From sequence record NC_055781.1: 64,000 nucleotides of DNA. One strand, written 5' to 3'. The notes beneath the pieces were generated by a model, which saw nothing but the letters and a program-made list of their open reading frames with translations, did not search any database and was not told the DNA's origin. This DNA comes from Escherichia phage p000v. Shown piece by piece: positions 7,876 through 61,617 of the stretch (the stretch's first letter is position 1; each line of letters opens with the position of its first letter). Position numbers and translations under genes: made by a program.

Positions 7876-9159
7876 TTATTCATCTATAATAATTTTAGGC
7901 AATTTAACACCGAGTAAAACAGACAAGTCTGAACGTCCTGCCATTTTATCCATGTCCCCGCCATCAATTACTCTCGCTTCTTTTTCATCTTTTGCTACTG
8001 TGTAAGGATTTGCTGATAAAGCATATCTAACCAATAAACCTATAGACGGTTGTAAGCTTTCCGGATCAACTACAACTTTAAATGCACCGACATGTTCCGG
8101 GTCGTCTAAATCCATTCCTTCAGTGTATGGAGCATAAAAGATGGACCCTACAATCTCTTTTTCGCCGATATTTTCTACAACACCCACAATAACATAATCT
8201 AACGGACTGTTGGTATCGCAGTAAAGAGGTAATCCATTTGCCAAGAATCCATAAGCATTTTGTGAAAGATACTTGTCATCTTCTGGCTTATGTTTTAACC
8301 AACCAGAAGCAGCAAGAATAGCAGCTGCACGAGCTGAAGCTACGCAAAACGTTGCAGTATAAGTTGACTCTTTTTGGATATGCGAAACCATTTCACACAC
8401 CATTCGATATAACGAACGACCTGCTTCCGGAGCGGATGCATAGCTCAAGTCAATAAATCCGGTGTCAGTAATTCCAGTAACTTTATAACGTTTCGATACA
8501 GTAATTAAAGACTGAAGAATATCTTTATTAATTTCATCAGCCATTTCAGTAGCAAGCAAATCTTCTAAGAAGTTAGGGGCATCAAATCCATTCGCTTCCA
8601 AATCTTGCGCTAATTCAACCGTGAGGCCGGTTTTAAGTTTACGAGATTTGACTGAAGTTTGCCATTTATTAATCTGGAATCTTGCATCAGAAATTTCGCT
8701 ACCAGAGCTTTCAAATTTGCTTGTTACCGCTGCATCTGAAAATAACCGTACCTTTAAATGAACGACCGCAATCTGAAGAGCTAATTCTAGATCACTTTCC
8801 TGAATATCTGCAAACGGTGTATCTTCTAACACTTTATAGACTATATTATTATATTTGAAAAAATCACCTTTATTTAGTGTGGCTTTTGATTCTTCTGTGA
8901 GCTCGGTAATTTTTTCTCGGTCTACATATCCAGCTTCACCTGCATAAGTAGCACCAGTTTTAAATGTTAATTCGTTGTCTGGGTTAAGATATTTAATACC
9001 ATAAAAAGCAGCAACAGGTTGATTAGTTCTTTGTGTTGCCACAATGTCAGAATATATTAATTTAGTCGTAGCGCGAGTCAAAGCAACGAGATTTGGGCGA
9101 CCGATTGAGTTGCTAGTAGACGTTGTAGATTCACGCAATAATTTTTGGATTTTACTCAT
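7876..9159 (-). CDS. 24: Capsid vertex protein gp24
   Basis: 427 aa (T4 gp24 length); gp23-like fold; position upstream of gene 23. Confidence 0.93.
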   Translation of the reverse strand: MSKIQKLLRESTTSTSNSIGRPNLVALTRATTKLIYSDIVATQRTNQPVAAFYGIKYLNPDNELTFKTGATYAGEAGYVDREKITELTEESKATLNKGDFFKYNNIVYKVLEDTPFADIQESDLELALQIAVVHLKVRLFSDAAVTSKFESSGSEISDARFQINKWQTSVKSRKLKTGLTVELAQDLEANGFDAPNFLEDLLATEMADEINKDILQSLITVSKRYKVTGITDTGFIDLSYASAPEAGRSLYRMVCEMVSHIQKESTYTATFCVASARAAAILAASGWLKHKPEDDKYLSQNAYGFLANGLPLYCDTNSPLDYVIVGVVENIGEKEIVGSIFYAPYTEGMDLDDPEHVGAFKVVVDPESLQPSIGLLVRYALSANPYTVAKDEKEARVIDGGDMDKMAGRSDLSVLLGVKLPKIIIDE

Positions 9160-9185: not shown

Positions 9186-9193
9186 TATTTATA
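9186..9193 (-). promoter_or_regulatory. Late promoter (TATAAATA) for gene 24
   Basis: Minus-strand TATAAATA about 27 nt upstream of gp24 ATG. Confidence 0.65.
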
Positions 9194-9199
9194 AAGATT

Positions 9200-9259
9200 G
9201 TTTACAACGTATTTGGTATGTGATACTATAGACTTATCAACTACAGAGGAGTAAACAAA
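9200..9259 (+). promoter_or_regulatory. Early promoter plus leader cassette (PeSL-like)
   Basis: GTTTAC -35 (9200-9205), TGATACTAT extended -10, CTATCAA leader, SD GAGGAG; the last 45 nt are identical to the leader at about 46950-46995. Confidence 0.6.
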
Positions 9260-9529
9260 ATGACTAAAGCACGTTTCTTAAGAGATACTTTAAAAGTTCT
9301 AGAAGCTGAAGAAGTTAAGTTAGTAGAAAAATATGGTGCAAAAGTTAACGGTAATGCCTTCAACAAAGTATGGATGAAAGTTGATTCTGAAGCTCGAGCT
9401 AAAGGTTATTGGGCCACTGATAAACTTGCATCATTCAAAAACAAAGACGGTTCTCCGGCATATGTCCAAGAAGGTATGCCTAATTGGCAAAATATTTTGA
9501 AAACTTACATCGAAATTGCACAGAAATAA
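9260..9529 (+). CDS. Hypothetical early protein (89 aa) between genes 24 and 23
   Basis: ORF on the opposite strand to the late genes, driven by the PeSL-like promoter; occupies the slot where T4 has segD. Confidence 0.6.
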   Translation: MTKARFLRDTLKVLEAEEVKLVEKYGAKVNGNAFNKVWMKVDSEARAKGYWATDKLASFKNKDGSPAYVQEGMPNWQNILKTYIEIAQK

Positions 9530-9537
9530 AACCAAAA

Positions 9538-9562
9538 AATGGGAGACCGAAGTCTCCCAAAA
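9538..9562 (-). terminator. Rho-independent terminator after gene 23
   Basis: GGGAGAC-CGAA-GTCTCCC hairpin followed on the minus strand by a T-run. Confidence 0.6.
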
Positions 9563-9582: not shown

Positions 9583-11151
9583 TTAGATGCCTTTTACATA
9601 TACACGGCGGAAGTAAGCGTTCTTACCAAGGCTGTTCAGGATAGACGGCATACCGGACTGGATGCGAGCACCTGGAGCCTGCAGGGAACTTTCAGCAAAC
9701 GGGTTAACACCGATACCGTAACGAGTTTTAAAGCCCATTACCGGCTGGAAGTTCTTAGGATCGGAACCACGCAGTGGGGTAAGTGCAACGTAAGGAGCAT
9801 AGTAAATACCTGCATCCATTTCGTTAGCGCCTTTGTAACCAACGGTGAAGTAATCCTGTTTAGCATACTGGTCGATGTATACGCGGTATTTACCACCAAG
9901 TACACCGGCAAATACAGACTTAGTAGTGTCGGTATTAAAACCAGAAGCCAGACCCTGTGCAGCGTAAGAAATACCAGTATCAACTGAAGCCAGTACGTTA
10001 ACTACGTTACGGGAAGCGATAATGAAGTTACCTTCACCACGGCCGGTTTGACGAGCAATTTCAACTGCTTCTTTATCAATCTGGAACAATAGAGATTTAA
10101 AGCTTTCACCGGCCCAACGAGCACCACGGATATCAATCGGGTCCTGGAAGTCAAATACACCAGCTTTAGAACCCGGAGTCAGGGTCATACCAGATTTACC
10201 AACCTGTGCTGAGTAGTTAATCCAATCAACAACTTCACGGTTGATTTCTAGCATAATTTCTGTAGCCAGAATACCGCTCAGTTCAGCATCAGCATCCATA
10301 CCGTGTACTGCACGGAGGTCTTGTGCTAATTCGATAGAGTAAGCAGCTTTCAGCTGGCGAGATTTAGCTTCGATAACTTGTTTATCGATACGGAAGCCCA
10401 TTTCATTCCATGGGTTATCGGTAGAACCGTTGAAACCTTCCTGGAGTTCAGCGATAGAAGTAGCCATACCTTCAGCGATTTCTACCAGTGCACCAGCTTC
10501 CATTTGTTTCTTAACTTCTGCATCTAATTTAGCAGCATCAGTTGCACCGGCATCGATTGTTACTTGAACAGAAGCTTGCAGATATACAGTACCAGTTTCC
10601 TGGAAGAAGTGAGTATAGATATCACCTACTGTGGTTTGTGTGCTAGCAGCCAGAGCTGGGAATTTCTTAGCAGCACCCTGACCAGAGAACATTGCATCCG
10701 GAGCATACATCGGATGGAAAGCTTCTTTAGCGCCAGCAGCGATAGGGTCTTTACCATATACTGCACGGAGAGCAAATACCTGACCGGTCGGGCTGTTCAT
10801 AGGCTGAACACCACAAATATCAAAAGCGATCAGATTAGGAATAGCACGACGAACCATACCCATAACTGCAGGCCCAATTTGGGTTACTGCACCAGAGGTT
10901 TGACCTGCTGCGATGTTCTGAGCATTATAACCATGGTCACCACCAATTTCAGCTTCGGTCAAGAAAGAACCAAATGCCTGAGCGATTTTCTCGTCTTTAT
11001 ATTCAGGGGATACTTCGAAATCTTTTTCCTGGTTTTCGAAGATTTTAGCGATAATAGCCTGCTTGCTATTAGCGATTTCCGGCAGGCCTTCACCTTCCAG
11101 CAGTTCTTTCCATTTGTCTACGAGCTGAGCTTTAGTTTTGATAGTAGTCAT
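9583..11151 (-). CDS. 23: Major capsid protein gp23
   Basis: 522 aa; N-terminal propeptide MTTIKTKAQLVDKWKELLEGEG... with LxE protease sites; unmistakable T4 gp23 sequence. Confidence 0.97.
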   Translation of the reverse strand: MTTIKTKAQLVDKWKELLEGEGLPEIANSKQAIIAKIFENQEKDFEVSPEYKDEKIAQAFGSFLTEAEIGGDHGYNAQNIAAGQTSGAVTQIGPAVMGMVRRAIPNLIAFDICGVQPMNSPTGQVFALRAVYGKDPIAAGAKEAFHPMYAPDAMFSGQGAAKKFPALAASTQTTVGDIYTHFFQETGTVYLQASVQVTIDAGATDAAKLDAEVKKQMEAGALVEIAEGMATSIAELQEGFNGSTDNPWNEMGFRIDKQVIEAKSRQLKAAYSIELAQDLRAVHGMDADAELSGILATEIMLEINREVVDWINYSAQVGKSGMTLTPGSKAGVFDFQDPIDIRGARWAGESFKSLLFQIDKEAVEIARQTGRGEGNFIIASRNVVNVLASVDTGISYAAQGLASGFNTDTTKSVFAGVLGGKYRVYIDQYAKQDYFTVGYKGANEMDAGIYYAPYVALTPLRGSDPKNFQPVMGFKTRYGIGVNPFAESSLQAPGARIQSGMPSILNSLGKNAYFRRVYVKGI

Positions 11152-13317: not shown

Positions 13318-14888
13318 TAAAAATCCTCTTGTTCTTGGTCGGGGTCTTGGAAACGAGCCTCTTTCGACTCTTCTTCAATTTGCTTAGCCTCTTGTTCAAT
13401 TTCCTCGTCAGACATCTGAAGAATATCTTTCATAGCTGTTCTGTGAGAAATATATTTACCAATAAATGGTTCGGCCATCTGAAGCATATTAATGCGACGC
13501 TCCAGAATCTCAGCATCCTTTAATTCCGAGAAATAACTATCCCGATGAAATTTTATCTTAATATTATTTATTTCATCATTCCACTCATCTTCTGTAATAA
13601 TTCCTTTAAGAATTAAATTAGTTTTAAGCGGGTCTAGGAATATCTCTTCAAATTTATGTTGCAGCTCACGAATAAATTTACCAAATGACAATTCATCTCG
13701 TGTAATAGAAGTACCAGCATCAAACTGTATACCACCTTGGTCGCTTGGAATACGGGTAATAGGAATACGTAAAGCCATATAAAGCGCATTACGGAACCAA
13801 CGTACATCTTCCATATTTCCAGTATTATCTGCACCCGGTAATGTATCAACTTCTGTTACTGCTTTACCATCACGTCGTTGTAACCAATAATCTTCGGTCA
13901 TCGACATAATATGCTGCTGGTTTTTAATCTTGCCTGTAGTGGCATCATATGCAATACGGTTTTTCATCGTATTCATAACATGTTGCATATGTTCTGCTGC
14001 TTTTCTTGAAGGCATATTACCTGTATCAACGTACCATACACGACGATCGGGAGCACGAGTAATACGATAAATTACAACAGCATCTTCAAGAAGTTTTAAT
14101 TGGTTTGCCGGCTTAATAGCCCGATGCAAATAACCAATGATATTTTTACCACAACAATCAACTAAACCAGAATGGGCATAAACAATCGCGGCTTTAGGGA
14201 TTTTTATTTTTGTGCCAGCTTCATATATGCGACCATCACAAGCATAAGATTCGTGTGATGTGTCATAAATGAAATATTCCTTATAACCCTTGACTATTTT
14301 AACACCAGCTTCAGTGGTTGTAATAACTTCACGGACATATTGAACTTGACGTGGGTCTAAACGACGAAGCTCTTTAATACCTTCTTTAGGGCGTTTAGGG
14401 TCAATAATTTTATGGAAGAAAATTCGAGAATCTACGTACCAACGTCTAAAATGGTCTGAACCTTTACGTTGGAAAGATAAATGATTTAACACTTCGTTAA
14501 ATTCATCCAATATCATTGATTTGATATTTGGACTAAATTTTGTGTTGTCTAAATTTATAGAAACGACTTCTGTATCATCTTCATATACGATAGCATCGGA
14601 AACTATTTCAGAGACTGCATTATCCACTTCATAGTTCGTCATCAAATTTCGATACGTATCGATTAATTCACGCGTTGATTTGAGCCCTGGTTCTTGGCTA
14701 CCGAACATTCTCTGAAACATAGCATTATATGTTTGCTGTGCTTCATTTTCAGATACTTCGTATTCTTTAGCGCCGTCGTCTAATTTTGGTGTGGTGATCG
14801 ATTCTAAATTTTCTTTTTCTTGGTCTTTGTAATCACGTTCGTCCATTTTTGCCCATGGAGCAAACAAACTTAAGATATTAAATTTCAT
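13317..14888 (-). CDS. 20: Portal vertex protein gp20
   Basis: 523 aa; T4 gp20 length and sequence character. Confidence 0.95.
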
Positions 14889-35837: not shown

Positions 35838-37571
35838 TTACCCAATATCAATACGAGATCCGTCAACAGTGTATTGTCCTGAAGCTACTGAGCTCATTGT
35901 AGACATCGTTTCTGCCCAATCCCCGGCAACAGTCATATCAACATTACCATTAACAGTCCATTTAACGTTTCCGTTGACGGTGTAATCATGATTCCCTTCG
36001 ACCTGAGTTTTAGCATCACCTTTAACAAGAATATCTGCATTTCCGTCAACAACTATTTTGATATTACCCTTAACGTAAAGAGTTCCATCGCCTTCAACAG
36101 TTTTAGTTTGGTTACCACGAATAAAGATTGTGTCATTGCCGTCTATTTGATGGAGGCGATCTGCCATGTTATAATATATTTCATTAGCACCAACGTTAAC
36201 AAGCTTATCACCAGAAATCAAGAAGTTCCCATCGCCATTAGTGATGTCAAAAAGGTCTTCTACAGTTTTACGAGTACGACGCCCGGATGGAGAAACTTCC
36301 TCATATGACCCTGTTGGATGAACTAAGCGATAACGTTCATTACCTGGAGTGTCATCAAATTCTTGGATATGACCACTTTCTGTTTCCATAGCATGAACAT
36401 ATGGATACTCACCACGATAACTTGATTCCGGTTCTTTAAAAAGGATGCGTGAATCTAATGGAACAGGAGGACCGGCCGGGTCTTCTGAATCGGTATTTCT
36501 AGTAACTAAATCGGCACCAACTCCTGGTGAAGGTGGTGTTTTAACAGGAACACCGTACGATTCCATGTTACCAGTTAAAATAATTGTTGTTACGCGTGAA
36601 GCACGTCCTTTAGTCTGTTGGAACCATAATGAATCACGCCCGGATTTGTATGCAGTTTTCCAATCACCTGTGGCCATTGCTTTAAGCATAGTATTGAATT
36701 TTGCTACGCCACCAACGCCCATTTGGAAGCACATGTTTTCTAATGCCATTTGACGAGACCTGTTCATTTTAGCATAAACAGGACCTACTTTGGAATTAGA
36801 ACGAATGTCTTTCTGCATCTTAGCAAGGTCTTTCTCAAATAACGCTGTTGCTTCTTCTAATGTAATAGTTCCCGGATTTCCTGTTACTTCACGCCCTACT
36901 TGATCGGATAACAATTTATTAATTCGAGACATATCTCGGGTCTTTTCCATTACGATAAGGTGTCCAATACCTACTGTAGGATATCCGAGATGGTCCCAAT
37001 ACACTTTATCACGAAGTCCTTCGTCACGACGTAACATTTCCGTTATTGTAAAATTAGGGTCATCATCTTCTGGAATATTTGCTAAATCTGTATCGTCTGG
37101 GTTTATACCATAATCCAAGTTGTTATCTTGAATTACGTTAGAGTTTGAATAATAACCGGCTTCACCACCTTGGTTTAATACGTTAGTATCATTACCTAAA
37201 CGTCGTGGATATTGGCCTGTCGGGTCTGAAAAACCTTCAAGTCTATTAGGCTTTTCACGTACGATTCCGCCGTATGTACCAAGTACAATCCCGTTTGTTT
37301 TCCATTTGTCTAAGAAATGACCATATACTCGAGTTCCTTCAACAGGACCTGTAACAGAACCACCAATACCTGACATTGATGCGGACGTAATAGGTTGAAT
37401 AACAGTCATCCATGGAAGTTTTTCTGTAGGAATACCTTGCACATCACCTTGTGCTCTCTGTGCTGGATGAAGACCAACGACTCGAACTCGAACTCGCCCT
37501 TGTTTTAATGGGTCCATTCTGTCCTCGACAACACCCACGAACCAATTAAGGCTACTGCTAATCATTTCCAT
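35838..37571 (-). CDS. 5: Baseplate hub + tail lysozyme gp5 (cell-puncturing device)
   Basis: 577 aa; OB-fold N-terminus, central T4-lysozyme-like domain (EGLRDKVYWDHLGYPTVGIGHLI...), C-terminal VxGxxxxx beta-helix repeats. Confidence 0.95.
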   Translation of the reverse strand: MEMISSSLNWFVGVVEDRMDPLKQGRVRVRVVGLHPAQRAQGDVQGIPTEKLPWMTVIQPITSASMSGIGGSVTGPVEGTRVYGHFLDKWKTNGIVLGTYGGIVREKPNRLEGFSDPTGQYPRRLGNDTNVLNQGGEAGYYSNSNVIQDNNLDYGINPDDTDLANIPEDDDPNFTITEMLRRDEGLRDKVYWDHLGYPTVGIGHLIVMEKTRDMSRINKLLSDQVGREVTGNPGTITLEEATALFEKDLAKMQKDIRSNSKVGPVYAKMNRSRQMALENMCFQMGVGGVAKFNTMLKAMATGDWKTAYKSGRDSLWFQQTKGRASRVTTIILTGNMESYGVPVKTPPSPGVGADLVTRNTDSEDPAGPPVPLDSRILFKEPESSYRGEYPYVHAMETESGHIQEFDDTPGNERYRLVHPTGSYEEVSPSGRRTRKTVEDLFDITNGDGNFLISGDKLVNVGANEIYYNMADRLHQIDGNDTIFIRGNQTKTVEGDGTLYVKGNIKIVVDGNADILVKGDAKTQVEGNHDYTVNGNVKWTVNGNVDMTVAGDWAETMSTMSSVASGQYTVDGSRIDIG

Positions 37572-38146
37572 TATGCAATCTCCATCTCACGAATCAAATC
37601 AGTAATAAACGAGTTTATATCTTCTTTTGCAACAATTTTTATTTTACGAAGTTTTTCATTATCTAATACTGCCGCTTCATAAGTATCTACTGCAGCTAAA
37701 GGTCCTTTATATTGCGGATACTTACGAGCTTCGTCACCTTTGTCATACCACACTAAAGGCTCATCCGGATATGAAACTAAATTGTAAAATTTCTCACGGT
37801 TCTCGTTAATATGGTAAAGAATTTGGTCTCCGCCAGCATTTGCATATTTCTGAATAGACGCTTGATACGCTGCTTCCTGAGATGTAATCCAACCATAATA
37901 TGGGTCATAGTTATCATTGCACATCAAAAGGACCCAGTATAATTGAGGGTTGCCATAAATTATGTTTGCTAGTTCTTCAGGACGCGGAGAGCCTTTAATA
38001 TAATAAGAACGTAATCTATAATTAGCAGCAACACGCTTAAAGTACTCTTTATAGTTACGAAATATGTCTGTCATAGGAATAGTAGGTGCATTCTTATCAA
38101 CTGTTTTAGCACTATATCCTATTGGGTCGAAGAATGTAAATAACAA
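37571..38146 (-). CDS. 53: Baseplate wedge protein gp53
   Basis: 191 aa; (M)LFTFFDPIGYSAK...; first codon at 38144-38146 reads TTG on the minus strand, with SD AAGGAG 6 nt upstream. Confidence 0.88.
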   Translation of the reverse strand: MLFTFFDPIGYSAKTVDKNAPTIPMTDIFRNYKEYFKRVAANYRLRSYYIKGSPRPEELANIIYGNPQLYWVLLMCNDNYDPYYGWITSQEAAYQASIQKYANAGGDQILYHINENREKFYNLVSYPDEPLVWYDKGDEARKYPQYKGPLAAVDTYEAAVLDNEKLRKIKIVAKEDINSFITDLIREMEIA

Positions 38147-42304: not shown

Positions 42305-42368
42305 GTTTACATAAGGATGATGGTGTGTTACTATCATCCTATCAAATAAACAACCTCAAGGAAATAAA
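42305..42368 (+). promoter_or_regulatory. Early promoter + stem-loop cassette (PeSL-like) upstream of ipI-like gene
   Basis: GTTTAC (42305-42310), TGTTACTAT -10 inside the inverted repeat AGGATGATGG...CTATCATCCT, CTATCAA leader, SD AAGGAA. Confidence 0.6.
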
Positions 42369-42680
42369 ATGAAAACGTATCAAGAGTTTATCGCAGAAGC
42401 TACTAAAGCCGATAAAAATTTTATTATTAACACCACCGGTCCGTTAGATGATGAATACGCTAATGCTATTATTAAGTCAATTTCTAATCAAGGCGTTGAA
42501 GTAACAAATTTCGAATATAAGAAAAATGATACTTATATGGTAATTAGTATCAAAAAAGGTTCAAAGGCTAAAATTAAATCTGCATTTGGTGTTATGCGAG
42601 TCGACCAAATCGATAACCACGATTTTTCACAAACAGGGGTCAAACGCCAGAATACTATTTCATCTAAAGGCATAAAATAG
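42369..42680 (+). CDS. Internal protein (IPI locus) with capsid targeting sequence
   Basis: 103 aa; N-terminus MKTYQEFIAE|A matches the T4 internal-protein CTS with IxE protease site; located next to 57B as T4 ipI. Confidence 0.7.
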   Translation: MKTYQEFIAEATKADKNFIINTTGPLDDEYANAIIKSISNQGVEVTNFEYKKNDTYMVISIKKGSKAKIKSAFGVMRVDQIDNHDFSQTGVKRQNTISSKGIK

Positions 42681-42746
42681 TTTACATGCTGATAGGACTA
42701 TGTTATAGTAGTCCTATCAAAACAAATGAGTAAATGGAGAAATAAA
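42680..42746 (+). promoter_or_regulatory. Early promoter + stem-loop cassette (PeSL-like)
   Basis: GTTTAC (42680-42685), TGTTATAGT -10 inside the inverted repeat ATAGGACTA...TAGTCCTAT, leader CTATCAAAACAA, SD GGAG. Confidence 0.6.
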
Positions 42747-42932
42747 ATGAAACGCGCTGAACTGATTCGTAATGTTGCTGTAGTAATTGCTTCAATGGCT
42801 TTTAGTTTTTCGATGTTTGTAGGATTCATTTGTGGACTACTGACAACAACTGAAAATTCTATCTCATTGGTAGTAGCATTTCTAATCGGCTTAATCGCTA
42901 TCGTTATGGATAAAATTGCAAAAGGTGAGTAA
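42747..42932 (+). CDS. Small membrane protein (two predicted TM helices)
   Basis: Start at M8 of the track ORF (SD GGAGA 7 nt upstream); 61 aa; hydrophobic segments VAVVIASMAFSFSMFVGFICGLL and ISLVVAFLIGLIAIVM. Confidence 0.55.
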   Translation: MKRAELIRNVAVVIASMAFSFSMFVGFICGLLTTTENSISLVVAFLIGLIAIVMDKIAKGE

Positions 42933-45617: not shown

Positions 45618-45648
45618 AAGCCCCTTCCGAAAGGTTGGGGCTTTTTTG
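45618..45648 (+). terminator. Rho-independent terminator
   Basis: AAGCCCC-TTCCGAAAGGTT-GGGGCTT hairpin followed by TTTTTTG; near-identical copy at about 61579-61608. Confidence 0.7.
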
Positions 45649-45656
45649 TATAAATA
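45649..45656 (+). promoter_or_regulatory. Late promoter (TATAAATA)
   Basis: Plus-strand TATAAATA about 36 nt upstream of ATG 45692, immediately after the terminator. Confidence 0.6.
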
Positions 45657-46370: not shown

Positions 46371-46429
46371 GTTTACTTCTTCCCTAGATGTGTTACTATA
46401 GAACCTATCAACAACATGAGGAAAATGTT
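46371..46429 (+). promoter_or_regulatory. Early promoter + leader cassette (PeSL-like)
   Basis: GTTTAC (46371-46376), TGTTACTAT -10, CTATCAACAA leader, SD GAGGA. Confidence 0.55.
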
Positions 46430-46933: not shown

Positions 46934-46992
46934 TGTACAATCACCAAGGATGGTGATACTATAGACTTATCAACTACAGAGGAGTAAACAAA

Positions 46993-47157
46993 ATGACTAC
47001 TTTAATTATTTGGTTCGATGAAAATGAAGAAACATACTGTGTGAATATTGGTGAAAGCCCAATGCCTGAATTTGAATCCTCAGATAAAAACTCTGTTGTA
47101 TCTTGGGCTGAAGGTTATAAAGCAGCTAAAGGTGACGTTGAAATAATTTACATCTAA
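46993..47157 (+). CDS. Small hypothetical protein (54 aa), not in ORF track
   Basis: ATG 46993 preceded by the duplicated 45-nt leader with SD GAGGAG; MTTLIIWFDENEETYCVNIG...; stop TAA 47155-47157. Confidence 0.5.
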   Translation: MTTLIIWFDENEETYCVNIGESPMPEFESSDKNSVVSWAEGYKAAKGDVEIIYI

Positions 47158-47203
47158 GTAAGTTTATGTTATAGTAGTTCTATCAAAACAAGAGGAAAAC
47201 AAA
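47147..47203 (+). promoter_or_regulatory. Decayed early promoter cassette (TTTACA-17-TGtTATAGT) + leader
   Basis: TTTACA at 47147-47152, 17-nt spacer, TATAGT preceded by TG; leader CTATCAAAACAAGAGGAAAACAAA-ATG; upstream IR arm missing compared with the full cassettes. Confidence 0.5.
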
Positions 47204-49803: not shown

Positions 49804-50001
49804 ATGTCTCGTGAATTAGATTGTGCTGTACGTACAGCAGTAGCTGCCCTAGAAAACCTGTTCCAGATTGCAACCGAAGAGCGTGAAGAAGTTACATTGT
49901 GGATTGAAGATAACGCAGGTCTGAATCTCCAGGACGCAATCTCGTTATCAAATAATAGTATTACTGTTCAAGGCTGGGTATCATCTAGTTATTCTTGCTA
50001 A
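49804..50001 (+). CDS. Small protein, member C of tandem triplicated family (C-terminal QGWVSSSYSC)
   Basis: 65 aa; paralogue of 49207 and 49522. Confidence 0.6.
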   Translation: MSRELDCAVRTAVAALENLFQIATEEREEVTLWIEDNAGLNLQDAISLSNNSITVQGWVSSSYSC

Positions 50002-50005
50002 AACA

Positions 50006-50063
50006 GTTTACAACAAGATAGGGCTATGTTATAGTAGTCCTATCAAATTAAATGGAGTCTACA
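50006..50063 (+). promoter_or_regulatory. Early promoter + stem-loop cassette (PeSL-like)
   Basis: GTTTAC (50006-50011), TGTTATAGT inside the inverted repeat ATAGGGCTA...TAGTCCTAT, leader CTATCAAATTAAA, SD GGAG. Confidence 0.6.
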
Positions 50064-50303
50064 ATGATTTATTATGAAAGTATCGGAACCGAAGTAGTTG
50101 CTAAAACTATTACTCGTGAAAAGTTTGCAAAGATATTCGATATGCGTTATAAAAAATCTGAACACAAAGGCATCCGATTCGAAGATGCGCACTGTACAAT
50201 TTGCCCTTATAATGAAGACATAAACGGTACAATCGTTCCATTGGTAGAGGCTTCACATGATGACCTCTGGGATGAATATAATATCGCATGTCGCGAAATT
50301 TAA
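50064..50303 (+). CDS. Hypothetical protein
   Basis: Start at M5 of the track ORF (SD GGAG 6 nt upstream); 79 aa. Confidence 0.5.
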   Translation: MIYYESIGTEVVAKTITREKFAKIFDMRYKKSEHKGIRFEDAHCTICPYNEDINGTIVPLVEASHDDLWDEYNIACREI

Positions 50304-54380: not shown

Positions 54381-54794
54381 ATGACTCGTATCAATTTAAC
54401 ACTTGTTTCTGAACTGACCGACCAACATCTTATGGCTGAGTATCGTGAATTACCACGCGTATTTGGTGCAGTCCGTAAACATGTTCAAAATGGTAAACGT
54501 GTAAAGGATTTTAAAATCTCTCCAACATTTATCTTAGGCACAGGTCACGTAACATTCTTTTACGACAAACTTGAATTTTTACGTTTACGTCAAATCGAGC
54601 TAATCGTGGAATGTTTAAAACGCGGTTTCAAAATCAAGGACACGACAGTCCAGGATATTTCCGACATTCCTGTAGAATTTCGTAATAATTATGTCCCGTC
54701 CGAAGCGTCCATTGCGATAAGTCAAGCACGCTTAGATGAAAAAATTGCTCAACGTCCGACTTGGTACAAATACTATGGTAAATCAATTTACTAA
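54381..54794 (+). CDS. denV: Endonuclease V, pyrimidine dimer DNA glycosylase (DenV)
   Basis: Start at M5 of the track ORF; 137 aa; [34 protein letters not shown]... near-identical in character to T4 endo V. Confidence 0.93.
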
Positions 54795-54806
54795 GGAAAA
54801 ACGAAA

Positions 54807-55061
54807 ATGTATCAAGAATTTACCGCTGAAGCAGATGCCAAAGGCCCAAAGTTTAAAGTTAAAGCTTTCATTGGTGATGCGGAAGACTTTGGCTCATTAA
54901 AATGTAATGGGTATTCTTTCTTAGGTGGCGATGGTAAAGAAATCAACACCTATGCAAAACGTAGTGAAATTGCTTATGTTGTAGCAAGTCCTAAAGTAGA
55001 TGTTGACGATATTGAATACGATTTTAACAACTTCGGAATTATTTCTGGCGGTAAAGCTTAA
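54807..55061 (+). CDS. Hypothetical protein with degenerate CTS-like N-terminus
   Basis: 84 aa; N-terminus MYQEFTAEA resembles MKTYQEFIAEA lacking two residues. Confidence 0.5.
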   Translation: MYQEFTAEADAKGPKFKVKAFIGDAEDFGSLKCNGYSFLGGDGKEINTYAKRSEIAYVVASPKVDVDDIEYDFNNFGIISGGKA

Positions 55062-55065
55062 AATT

Positions 55066-55125
55066 GTTTACGCTTAAGTATTAATATGGTATAATTACTC
55101 TATCAAAACAAACAAGGAAACAAAA
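55066..55125 (+). promoter_or_regulatory. Early promoter + leader cassette (PeSL-like)
   Basis: GTTTAC (55066-55071), TGGTATAAT extended -10, leader CTATCAAAACAAACAAGGAAACAAAA. Confidence 0.6.
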
Positions 55126-55440
55126 ATGAAAACGTATAAAGAATTTATTGCAGAATCCGCCAACCAACGCGTTGAAGGTGGTTATATTTGGATTGAACAA
55201 GTTGAGCCACCGAGCCGCACTTCTACAGGTAAATGGAAAATTACCGTTGATGGTCCTGGTGGTAAACGTAGGACTCTTAAAGAAATTAACGGGTACTATG
55301 AAGAAGCTCTTTCGGATGCAGGAACTTACATGATGCAAATCATGATTAAAAACCCTGAAAACCGTTTTGCAGCTAAAGTCTTCCGCCGCATCGGTAATAA
55401 ACTTTATGATGCATACTCTAAAAACTTCCCTAAAGAATAA
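55126..55440 (+). CDS. Internal protein (IPII-like) with capsid targeting sequence
   Basis: 104 aa; N-terminus MKTYKEFIAE|S; basic; size close to T4 IPII (100 aa). Confidence 0.65.
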   Translation: MKTYKEFIAESANQRVEGGYIWIEQVEPPSRTSTGKWKITVDGPGGKRRTLKEINGYYEEALSDAGTYMMQIMIKNPENRFAAKVFRRIGNKLYDAYSKNFPKE

Positions 55441-55465
55441 CATAAATTAAAACAATAGGAACAAA

Positions 55466-56044
55466 ATGAAAACTTATAAAGAATTTATCGCCGAGGCCTT
55501 TGCAGGAAAAGCTCAAGGCATTAATAAGGACGAGTGGAATTATCGTGGCGGAAACGGCTTTGACCCTAAAACTGCTCCACTTGAACGATATCTAGCCACA
55601 AAAGCTTCTGATTTTAAAGCATTCGCTTGGGAAGGACTTCGCTGGCGTAACGATCTAAATATTGAAGTTGACGGACTCAAATTTGCTCATATTGAAGATG
55701 TTGTTGCTAGTAACTTAGATGCAGCTTTTGTTAAAGCCGACAGCGACCTTCGTCGCTGGAATTTAAAACTGTTCTCTAAACAAAAAGGCCCGAAGTTTGT
55801 GCCTAAAGCAGGTAAATGGGTTATTGATAATAAATTGGCTAAAGCTGTCAACTACGCTGGGCTTGAATTTGCCAAGCATAAATCATCATGGAAAGGTCTT
55901 GATGCAATGACTTTCCGTAAAGAATTTGCCGATGTTATGGCTAAAGGCGGCTTTAAGGCAGAAATAGATACCTCTAAAGGTACGTTTAAAGACGCTAATG
56001 TTCAGTACGCTTACGCCGTTGCTAATGCAGCCCGTGGTAATTAA
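55466..56044 (+). CDS. Internal protein (IPIII-like) with capsid targeting sequence
   Basis: 192 aa; N-terminus MKTYKEFIAE|A; size close to T4 IPIII (194 aa). Confidence 0.65.
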   Translation: MKTYKEFIAEAFAGKAQGINKDEWNYRGGNGFDPKTAPLERYLATKASDFKAFAWEGLRWRNDLNIEVDGLKFAHIEDVVASNLDAAFVKADSDLRRWNLKLFSKQKGPKFVPKAGKWVIDNKLAKAVNYAGLEFAKHKSSWKGLDAMTFRKEFADVMAKGGFKAEIDTSKGTFKDANVQYAYAVANAARGN

Positions 56045-58192: not shown

Positions 58193-58651
58193 ATGACTAT
58201 CAATTCGGAAGTTTTTATCCGTCGCAATAAACTCCGTCGAATCTTTGAAACGGAGTTTCGTCAAATCAACGCCAGTATAAAAGATGCTGCAAAGTCTCTT
58301 GGACTACCAGGCTTTCATATAAAGTATTCTCAACATCTCTTAGATCGTGCCATCCAGAGAGAAATAGATGAGAATTACGTTTTTGAATTATTTCATAAAG
58401 TAAAAAATCATGTTAAAGAAGTTGCAGAATTTTTATCAATGCCGGCACGTCCAGATGTTGATGAAGATTTTGTCGAAGGTGTCGAATATCGCCCAGGCCG
58501 TTTAGAAATAACTGACGGAAATCTTTGGTTAGGACTTACAGTCTGTCGCGAAAATCCAGCATTCAAAATGAAGACTCTTCAATGCAGAATGGCTATTATT
58601 AACAGTAAACGACTACCAGGAAAAGCTTCTAAAGCAGTGATTAAAATCTAG
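58193..58651 (+). CDS. regB: RegB-like endoribonuclease
   Basis: 152 aa (T4 RegB 153 aa); MTINSEVFIRRNKLRR... matches my recollection of the RegB N-terminus; location between denV and tk. Confidence 0.55.
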   Translation: MTINSEVFIRRNKLRRIFETEFRQINASIKDAAKSLGLPGFHIKYSQHLLDRAIQREIDENYVFELFHKVKNHVKEVAEFLSMPARPDVDEDFVEGVEYRPGRLEITDGNLWLGLTVCRENPAFKMKTLQCRMAIINSKRLPGKASKAVIKI

Positions 58652-61578: not shown

Positions 61579-61608
61579 AGCCCCTTCCTTATGGTTGGGG
61601 CTTTTTTG
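61579..61608 (+). terminator. Rho-independent terminator (copy of the 45618 hairpin)
   Basis: AGCCCC-TTCCTTATGGTT-GGGGCT followed by TTTTTTG; same stem sequence as at 45618. Confidence 0.7.
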
Positions 61609-61617
61609 TATCTATCA

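Follow-up and report, generated by a model that had tools for sequence, protein, structure and literature searches.

We show here that a predicted early promoter and leader located between the late genes 24 and 23 of Escherichia phage p000v are repeated, over exactly 47 bp, in front of an unrelated gene 37.7 kb away. The locus (positions 9200-9562) lies in a stretch of 64,000 nucleotides of sequence record NC_055781.1 that was analysed as a whole and is referred to below as the window. We consider it probable, and hold this with good confidence, that the locus represents an ordinary early transcription unit carrying the 47-bp footprint of an old ectopic recombination or gene conversion between two promoter-leader modules, in a module that would also be a recurrent site of crossover. 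Recombination had already been proposed as the source of the shared sequence in a preliminary description of this DNA, and it is the best explanation for what we find. The same description had called the event a recent transfer of a cassette, and here the evidence points elsewhere on both counts, as detailed below.

According to this account, 9200-9562 would form an early unit composed of a sigma-70 promoter with an extended -10 box, a 5' UTR of about 24 nt, the Shine-Dalgarno (SD) sequence GAGGAG and a gene for 89 amino acids (aa). The unit would be antisense between genes 24 and 23, with the late promoter of gene 24 on one side and the terminator of gene 23 on the other. Guided by homology between two early promoter-leader modules, an ectopic recombination or gene conversion would have overwritten one unit, from its -10 box to codon 2, with the corresponding segment of the other. 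We infer that this took place in the ancestor of the sampled Mosigvirus clade (the Mosigvirus stem); the two copies have since drifted independently. The conserved islands within the module, namely the -10/TATCAA start region, GAGGAG and the AAACAAAATG spacer, would have served as sites at which a 54-aa ORF was gained or lost at the second locus, and the same islands would have joined a diverged allele together with segD to the resident promoter.

The predicted early unit in the gap between genes 24 and 23

The gap of 423 bp between gene 24 (7876-9159, minus strand) and gene 23 (9583-11151, minus strand) holds the first copy of the repeat and the 89-aa ORF. A late-promoter box for gene 24, TATAAATA, can be read from the sequence at 9186-9193 on the minus strand (TATTTATA on the plus strand), the late-promoter consensus being well established for T4, and the string TATTTATAAA at this position is kept in all relatives aligned. 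Back to back with this box stands the predicted early promoter of the sigma-70 type (9200-9229, plus strand), with a -35 element GTTTAC(A), a 17-bp spacer and TGn followed by the -10 element TACTAT. In the consensus scan it matched at 9 of 12 positions (TTTACA at 9201-9206, 17-bp spacer, TG at 9221-9222, TACTAT at 9224-9229), GTTTAC itself occupying 9200-9205. Transcription likely starts near 9236-9239, at the TATCAA start region, both the activity of the promoter and its start being predictions from consensus. GAGGAG at 9246-9251 is followed by the ATG at 9260, a distance of 8 nt that is the same at the second locus. The ORF runs from 9260 to 9529 on the plus strand (phrog_6003; a gap resident with no function assigned) and is followed by an intrinsic terminator identified by a scan (9530-9559, minus strand; stem 9540-9559, UUCG loop, T-run 9530-9539). 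Since the T-run of this hairpin is on the minus strand, we assign the terminator to gene 23 rather than to the small ORF on the plus strand; the hairpin is identical in distant orthologous loci. The arrangement originally described, an early-type promoter, leader and small ORF placed antisense between two late genes, is therefore supported, with the promoter predicted from its consensus.

A structured RNA element in the leader was considered as well and dropped, as the 5' UTR folds no better than its shuffles: the predicted transcribed leaders appear unstructured at both loci (folding z-scores of +1.5 and +0.5). A search against Rfam gave no family at threshold, only weak chance matches on the gene 23 terminator. 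Locus 1 also contains an 8-bp inverted repeat between the -35 region (9198-9205, TTGTTTAC) and the leader (9251-9258, GTAAACAA). This repeat, which dominates the predicted DNA/RNA fold across the promoter, has no counterpart at locus 2 and is probably coincidental.

The protein encoded by the 89-aa ORF has no Pfam family above cut-off (best, DUF4859 with 18.2 bits against a cut-off of 22.6) and no GIY-YIG domain in the same search, and its family in PHROGs carries no function. The AlphaFold model, built on an alignment of five sequences, is mediocre (pLDDT 70.8). Foldseek returned nothing from the PDB at E <= 0.001 and a single match from BFVD, an 88-aa viral protein that probably belongs to the same family. 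In RB69 (37792-38032 of the retrieved stretch) and mogra (1154-1422 of the retrieved stretch) the ORF is split by frameshifts and annotated as two short ORFs, which suggests either that it is dispensable in the laboratory or that these records contain sequencing errors.

The window belongs to the Mosigvirus genus (RB69 group), and the sequence of the gap is 98-99% identical to that of more than 100 such phages. In tblastn, only Mosigvirus-like records yielded the 89-aa ORF, and a search of 5.8 billion proteins returned only 8 relatives, unannotated bar one with an implausible source label. Diverged members of the family nevertheless occupy the same gap: an allele with 31% identity is found there in the Mosigvirus phages JK45, mobillu and LF82-9, followed directly by segD, and also in Dhakavirus IME08, again with segD directly after it, while a related allele is found in Gaprivervirus VR7. 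Three orthologs from uncultured phages, with 60-70% identity, all (3/3) lie between gene 24 and gene 23. In IME08, VR7 and the three uncultured phages, the promoter spacer and the leader are different in each case; what is conserved are the late-promoter box and the hairpin of gene 23. This distribution makes the family a resident of long standing in the 24/23 gap, in phages of the genera Mosigvirus, Dhakavirus and Gaprivervirus as well as in uncultured relatives. IME08, VR7 and uncultured relatives additionally carry two tandem gene 24 paralogs (24a/24b) beside the small ORF, where the window has a single gene 24.

The content of the gap differs between phages, being the small ORF only, the small ORF with segD, or segD only. 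T4 represents the last arrangement, with segD, a GIY-YIG endonuclease gene, alone in the gap and antiparallel to genes 23 and 24. The preliminary description was thus correct about segD in T4, and the three arrangements bear out its idea of a slot with variable content. The unit in the window resembles T4 segD in its intergenic position and in its antiparallel orientation. It differs in that no GIY-YIG endonuclease ORF is present between 9160 and 9582, and the 89-aa ORF has neither a GIY-YIG nor any other Pfam domain. A putative endonuclease gene was observed at another place in mogra (13430-14065 of the retrieved stretch), between the neck-protein genes 13 and 14, and is absent from the other Mosigvirus records compared.

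An exact repeat of promoter and leader at two distant loci

The preliminary description had reported an exact 45-bp duplication, and the 45-mer indeed has two exact matches in the window, at 9221-9265 and 46954-46998, both on the plus strand and with 0 mismatches; two matches were found in 0 of 100 dinucleotide-preserving shuffles. When the window was compared with itself for differences between the copies, pairwise alignment and a repeat finder both gave 47 identical bp, with one extra base on each side of the 45-mer and unrelated flanks. The true repeat thus occupies 9220-9266 (copy 1) and 46953-46999 (copy 2), on the plus strand in both cases, and extends from the extended -10 box through the TATCAA start region, the 5' UTR and the SD GAGGAG to the first base of codon 3 (ATG ACT A). 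The two proteins headed by the repeat, of 89 and 54 aa, have no detectable similarity in a pairwise comparison, and so are unrelated as had been claimed.

At the second locus, the predicted early promoter (46934-46962, plus strand) has the -35 element TGTACA, a 17-bp spacer and TGn with the -10 element TACTAT. It matches 8 of 12 consensus positions, which is under the scan threshold: its -35 is weaker than that of locus 1, whereas the spacing and the TGn/-10 are identical. The spacer contains a 7-bp inverted repeat (ATCACCA at 46940-46946 and TGGTGAT at 46951-46957). The 54-aa early ORF (46993-47157, plus strand; phrog_5461, homolog of RB69ORF145c) is present or absent between close relatives and lies between a 181-aa ORF and a gene matching Pfam Phage_FRD3. 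The -35 element of the predicted early promoter for this latter gene, frd.3 (47147-47175, plus strand), falls inside the last codons of the 54-aa ORF, and this promoter is the recombination partner in deletions of the ORF. As to the 181-aa ORF, its promoter in APCEc01 (at 36796 of the retrieved stretch) and, at equivalent sites, in JK45, mobillu and one further relative has the same -10/+1 box (ATGATACTATAGACTTATCAAC) as the repeat copies; in the window (46390-46410) it has a different version, GTGTTACTATAGAACCTATCAAC.

Outside the clade, T2 carries a copy of the 54-aa ORF with 92.5% nucleotide identity. In comparison with T4, gene 23 is 90% and gene 24 is 87% identical, and this similar level of divergence indicates that the 54-aa ORF is as old as the resident 89-aa ORF. 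Horizontal transfer of the 54-aa ORF between genera was rejected, given that its identity to T2 does not exceed the level seen for genes 23 and 24 against T4. T2 shares the locus 2 promoter from the -35 to TATCAA and has a different leader. Directly after the ORF, T2 has an e.6 homolog, and the point of divergence is the -35 GTTTACA embedded in the last codons of the ORF. In a rank test the best match of the T2 leader among those of the window was the leader at 42709. This T2 leader (1430-1500 of the retrieved stretch) scored 37 with the window leader at 42709-42747 and only 19 with that of its own ortholog, which is another sign of leaders moving between genes.

Given that both ORFs are long-standing and have orthologs with other leaders, one of the two genes would have taken the -10-to-codon-2 segment of the other. 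As to the direction, copying from locus 2 to locus 1 was first favoured, as the distant alleles of the 89-aa ORF start with MNK and the T2 copy of the 54-aa ORF starts with ATGACTACT. It was dropped when closer orthologs were found to start with MTK, MNK or MKK, so that codon 2 varies within the family, and one ortholog was found to have a CAACTA...GTAAA...ATGACTAAA leader. In the rank test, no outgroup leader was closer to the repeated leader than to other leaders of the window.

These observations also bear on the idea that the promoter and ORF together had recently moved into the 24/23 gap as a whole cassette, for example by integration of a mini-circle of the PeSL type, a kind of promoter module discussed in the last section. 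Such mini-circles are documented in RB49/phi1, and the slot has a variable content, with segD there in T4. But the ORF family is found in the same gap of at least four diverged lineages with different leaders, and the repeat is found in about 140 records. Moreover, the identity ends at the first base of codon 3, which indicates that the ORF did not travel with the leader. We therefore regard a cassette move as very unlikely. It is the -10-to-codon-2 segment alone that appears to have been exchanged, in front of a gene already resident in the gap of several lineages. The preliminary description had set against its own proposal the case of the 9260 ORF being found at the same site in all relatives with a different leader, and this comes close to what we find.

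Could two such leaders have become identical without recombination, by convergence, with selection favouring strength in the early promoter and the ribosome-binding site? The window offers its own standard of comparison, as it contains 13 credible early promoter/leader units, all on the plus strand, of which 12 are located at 42-62 kb and the unit at 9229 is the only one in the late region. Early promoters of the T4 type are conserved over at least 40 bp, and exact runs of up to 27 nt, then 24 nt, are shared by other pairs of units in the window, as convergence would allow, against 47 nt for the repeat pair. Gapped identity over the 47-nt segment is 100% for the repeat pair and at best 82% (median 66%) for the others. 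The -10/+1 part (21 nt) is identical in the repeat pair and in one other pair, so it is the leader part (26 nt) that sets the repeat pair apart: 26 of 26 positions are identical, against a median of 60% and a next best value of 79% elsewhere. A leader identity so far beyond the range of the family makes the repeat pair too similar for functional convergence, and the orthologs of both genes use other leaders. Convergence is accordingly an explanation to which we give hardly any weight, slightly less than to a cassette move. Within its family the repeat pair stands at the extreme end, without forming a kind of its own. Its two members differ in setting: locus 2 lies in the variable early region, in which each small ORF has its own promoter, and locus 1 represents the rarer setting inside the virion module, beside a gene of no assigned function.

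Several further repeated elements were observed in the window. Two more distant members of the subfamily TCAACTA..GGAG..ATGACT head the ORFs at 54381-54794 and 58193-58651, the putative homologs of T4 denV and regB, respectively. A conserved SD and 5' end of the coding sequence are common to four small ORFs (42353-42397, 54785-54829, 55110-55154 and 55450-55494), with the motif ATGAAAAC(G/T)TAT(C/A)AAGA(G/A)TTTA.., giving MKTY(Q/K)EFI.; these ORFs have the look of paralogous early genes that form a dispersed or tandem family. A GC-rich hairpin with a T-run occurs in near-identical form (91%) at 45619-45651 and 61579-61611, and also at 2505-2537; from their sequence these elements look like terminators, a counterpart of the repeated promoters.

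Age, drift and crossover among relatives

The 47-mer was found in 140 phage records at 223 places, which means that roughly 80 genomes carry both copies. Two metagenome contigs carry it at both loci, and a wider search for the leader in the IMG/VR and JGI metagenomes returned only further Mosigvirus-like contigs. An assembly or sequencing artefact in the window has a practically negligible probability, with both copies present in dozens of independently sequenced isolates and in metagenome contigs.

To see how the copies have changed, 20 loci were read. At least 7 substitution events are private to one copy, and 0 are mirrored in the partner copy. RB69 has an exact copy at locus 2 and three changes in that at locus 1. 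An A4G change is found in APCEc01, JK45, mobillu and OCHD, at locus 2 only, and HX01 and one UViG have the SD changed from GAGGAG to GTGGAG at locus 2. LNA2, ESh27 and NHEP29 have one change each, at locus 1. As these private substitutions arise independently, the copies are not being homogenised. We see no sign of concerted evolution; in a clade with so little divergence (only 1-3%), the copies in the window are identical simply in having kept the ancestral sequence without mutation. The duplication would thus be old relative to the sampled genomes. With 140 records and 223 places, metagenome contigs among the carriers and copies that have since drifted independently, the description of the event as recent does not hold.

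The same data speak to the possibility that the leaders are held identical by ongoing gene conversion or by selection, for example through a shared trans-acting factor such as a translational repressor or RegB, which would cleave at GGAG. The two copies correspond to one and the same consensus 47-mer in most genomes. The leader does contain GGAG, and the presumed RegB homolog is encoded in the window at 58193-58651. In addition, the same A-to-G change (TATCAACT to TATCAGCT; TATCAA to TATCAG) is seen at locus 1 of RB69 and at locus 2 of an IMG/VR UViG, which could be explained by mutation in parallel or by a rare event of conversion from one locus to the other. Against this stand the private events, at least 7 in number and none mirrored, one of which affects the SD itself (HX01 and the UViG), and the fact that relatives function with other leaders on both genes. 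Furthermore, with a divergence of only 1-3% in the clade, no special force is needed for 47 bp to remain identical. We judge ongoing conversion or selection to be unlikely, and retain an old exchange followed by independent drift as the preferred explanation.

A comparison of the two loci among related phages, which the preliminary description had suggested, revealed a series of recombinants with breakpoints inside the promoter/leader module. At locus 1, mobillu has the promoter of the window up to TATCAA, where the other allele takes over with its leader, ORF and segD. In LF82-9 the promoter and leader of the window continue through GAGGAG, after which the other allele follows, while in JK45 the promoter is foreign too and the crossover lies just upstream of it. 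At locus 2, SHSML-52-1 and G53 are without the 54-aa ORF and have a hybrid promoter joined at TATCAA to the frd.3 leader. JQD51 and ESh27 are likewise without the 54-aa ORF, and their junction lies in the spacer between SD and ATG (GAGGAG|AAACAAAATGGCT). Four distinct breakpoints thus fall within the module, each locus having one at TATCAA and one in or after the SD, and a fifth, that of JK45, lies outside; breakpoints are detectable only in conserved islands with diverged flanks, so that their clustering in the module is partly an effect of ascertainment. The series points to the module as a recurrent crossover site in the Mosigvirus clade.

A stronger version of this idea would make the -10/TATCAA box an active hot spot of recombination, through R-loops or transcript-primed invasion (as at the origin promoters of T4) or through a phage nuclease. 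We consider this improbable, a little more so than ongoing conversion or selection. If it were true, any transcription unit could be plugged anew behind any early promoter with base-pair precision, in a manner similar to integrons, and the pair of 47-bp copies around 37.7 kb of structural genes would constitute a live substrate for large rearrangements.

Relation to known promoter-mediated gene shuffling

Conserved modules of early promoter, stem-loop and SD that flank small genes of no known function have been described as PeSLs (Arbiol et al. 2010, PMC2839356; Comeau et al. 2014, PMC4122927). Close relatives differ by indels and replacements that these modules mediate, a few of the cases lying inside the virion module (PMC2839356, PMC4122927). 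The elements studied here resemble PeSLs in their conserved early promoter, their AT-rich upstream sequence and the SD and start codon at the 3' end, as well as in their position before small genes of no known function. The junctions of indels and replacements between close relatives likewise fall inside the motif at both loci, and locus 1 would be comparable to the few PeSL elements found inside the virion-gene module beside genes of no known function. PeSLs are placed preferentially in hyperplastic regions, upstream of ORFans, and locus 2 agrees with this in its variable early surroundings.

There are two differences. Any stem-loop/terminator part would be weak at locus 1 and no more than modest at locus 2: around the -10 box of locus 1 there is only weak pairing (z = -1.8, with 13 of 200 shuffles folding as well), and locus 2 has the 7-bp spacer stem (z = -1.8, with 10 of 200 shuffles folding as well), while a strong stem surrounds the -10 box of other promoters in the window (e.g. 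50000-50067, z = -2.8). In addition, the segment exchanged between the loci comprises only the region from the -10 box to codon 2 and no ORF. PeSLs have been described in RB49/phi1, T4/PST and KVP40/nt-1, and the RB69 group is not among the published cases that we found (PMC2839356, PMC4122927). Because promoter, SD and junctions all agree with the PeSL description, we file the present case as an instance of known promoter-mediated shuffling in the RB69 group. What appears to be particular to this instance, going by the sequences compared, is that the youngest event exchanged the promoter/leader segment only, with no ORF.

The case illustrates cleanly, and with many natural representatives, how expression is rewired in T-even phages and how small early genes come and go, with the crossovers sitting in a few conserved bases of promoter-leader modules. 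The RB69-group recombinant series, with junctions at the start box, the SD and the spacer before the ATG, could be used to test the PeSL model, and the breakpoint sites could guide engineering as safe junctions for the insertion of genes.

No new type of element is revealed here, and prediction of both promoters in RB69 dates back to 2006, when the orthologous sites were given as the early promoters Pe:109605 (locus 1, score 29.9) and Pe:72567 (locus 2, score 33) (Nolan et al. 2006, Additional file 3, PMC1524935). According to the coordinates in that file, Pe:109605 is the sole predicted RB69 early promoter between 77187 and 112451, within the late-gene block. The entries of the list for these promoters consist of coordinates only, and the identical leader of Pe:109605 and Pe:72567 is not mentioned in them (PMC1524935). 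A related phenomenon is the shuffling of T-even internal-protein genes between conserved flanking segments (Repoila et al. 1994, as cited by Comeau et al., PMC4122927). As summarized there, variable small genes are swapped through short conserved regulatory or 5' segments, similar to what is seen here, although at another locus.
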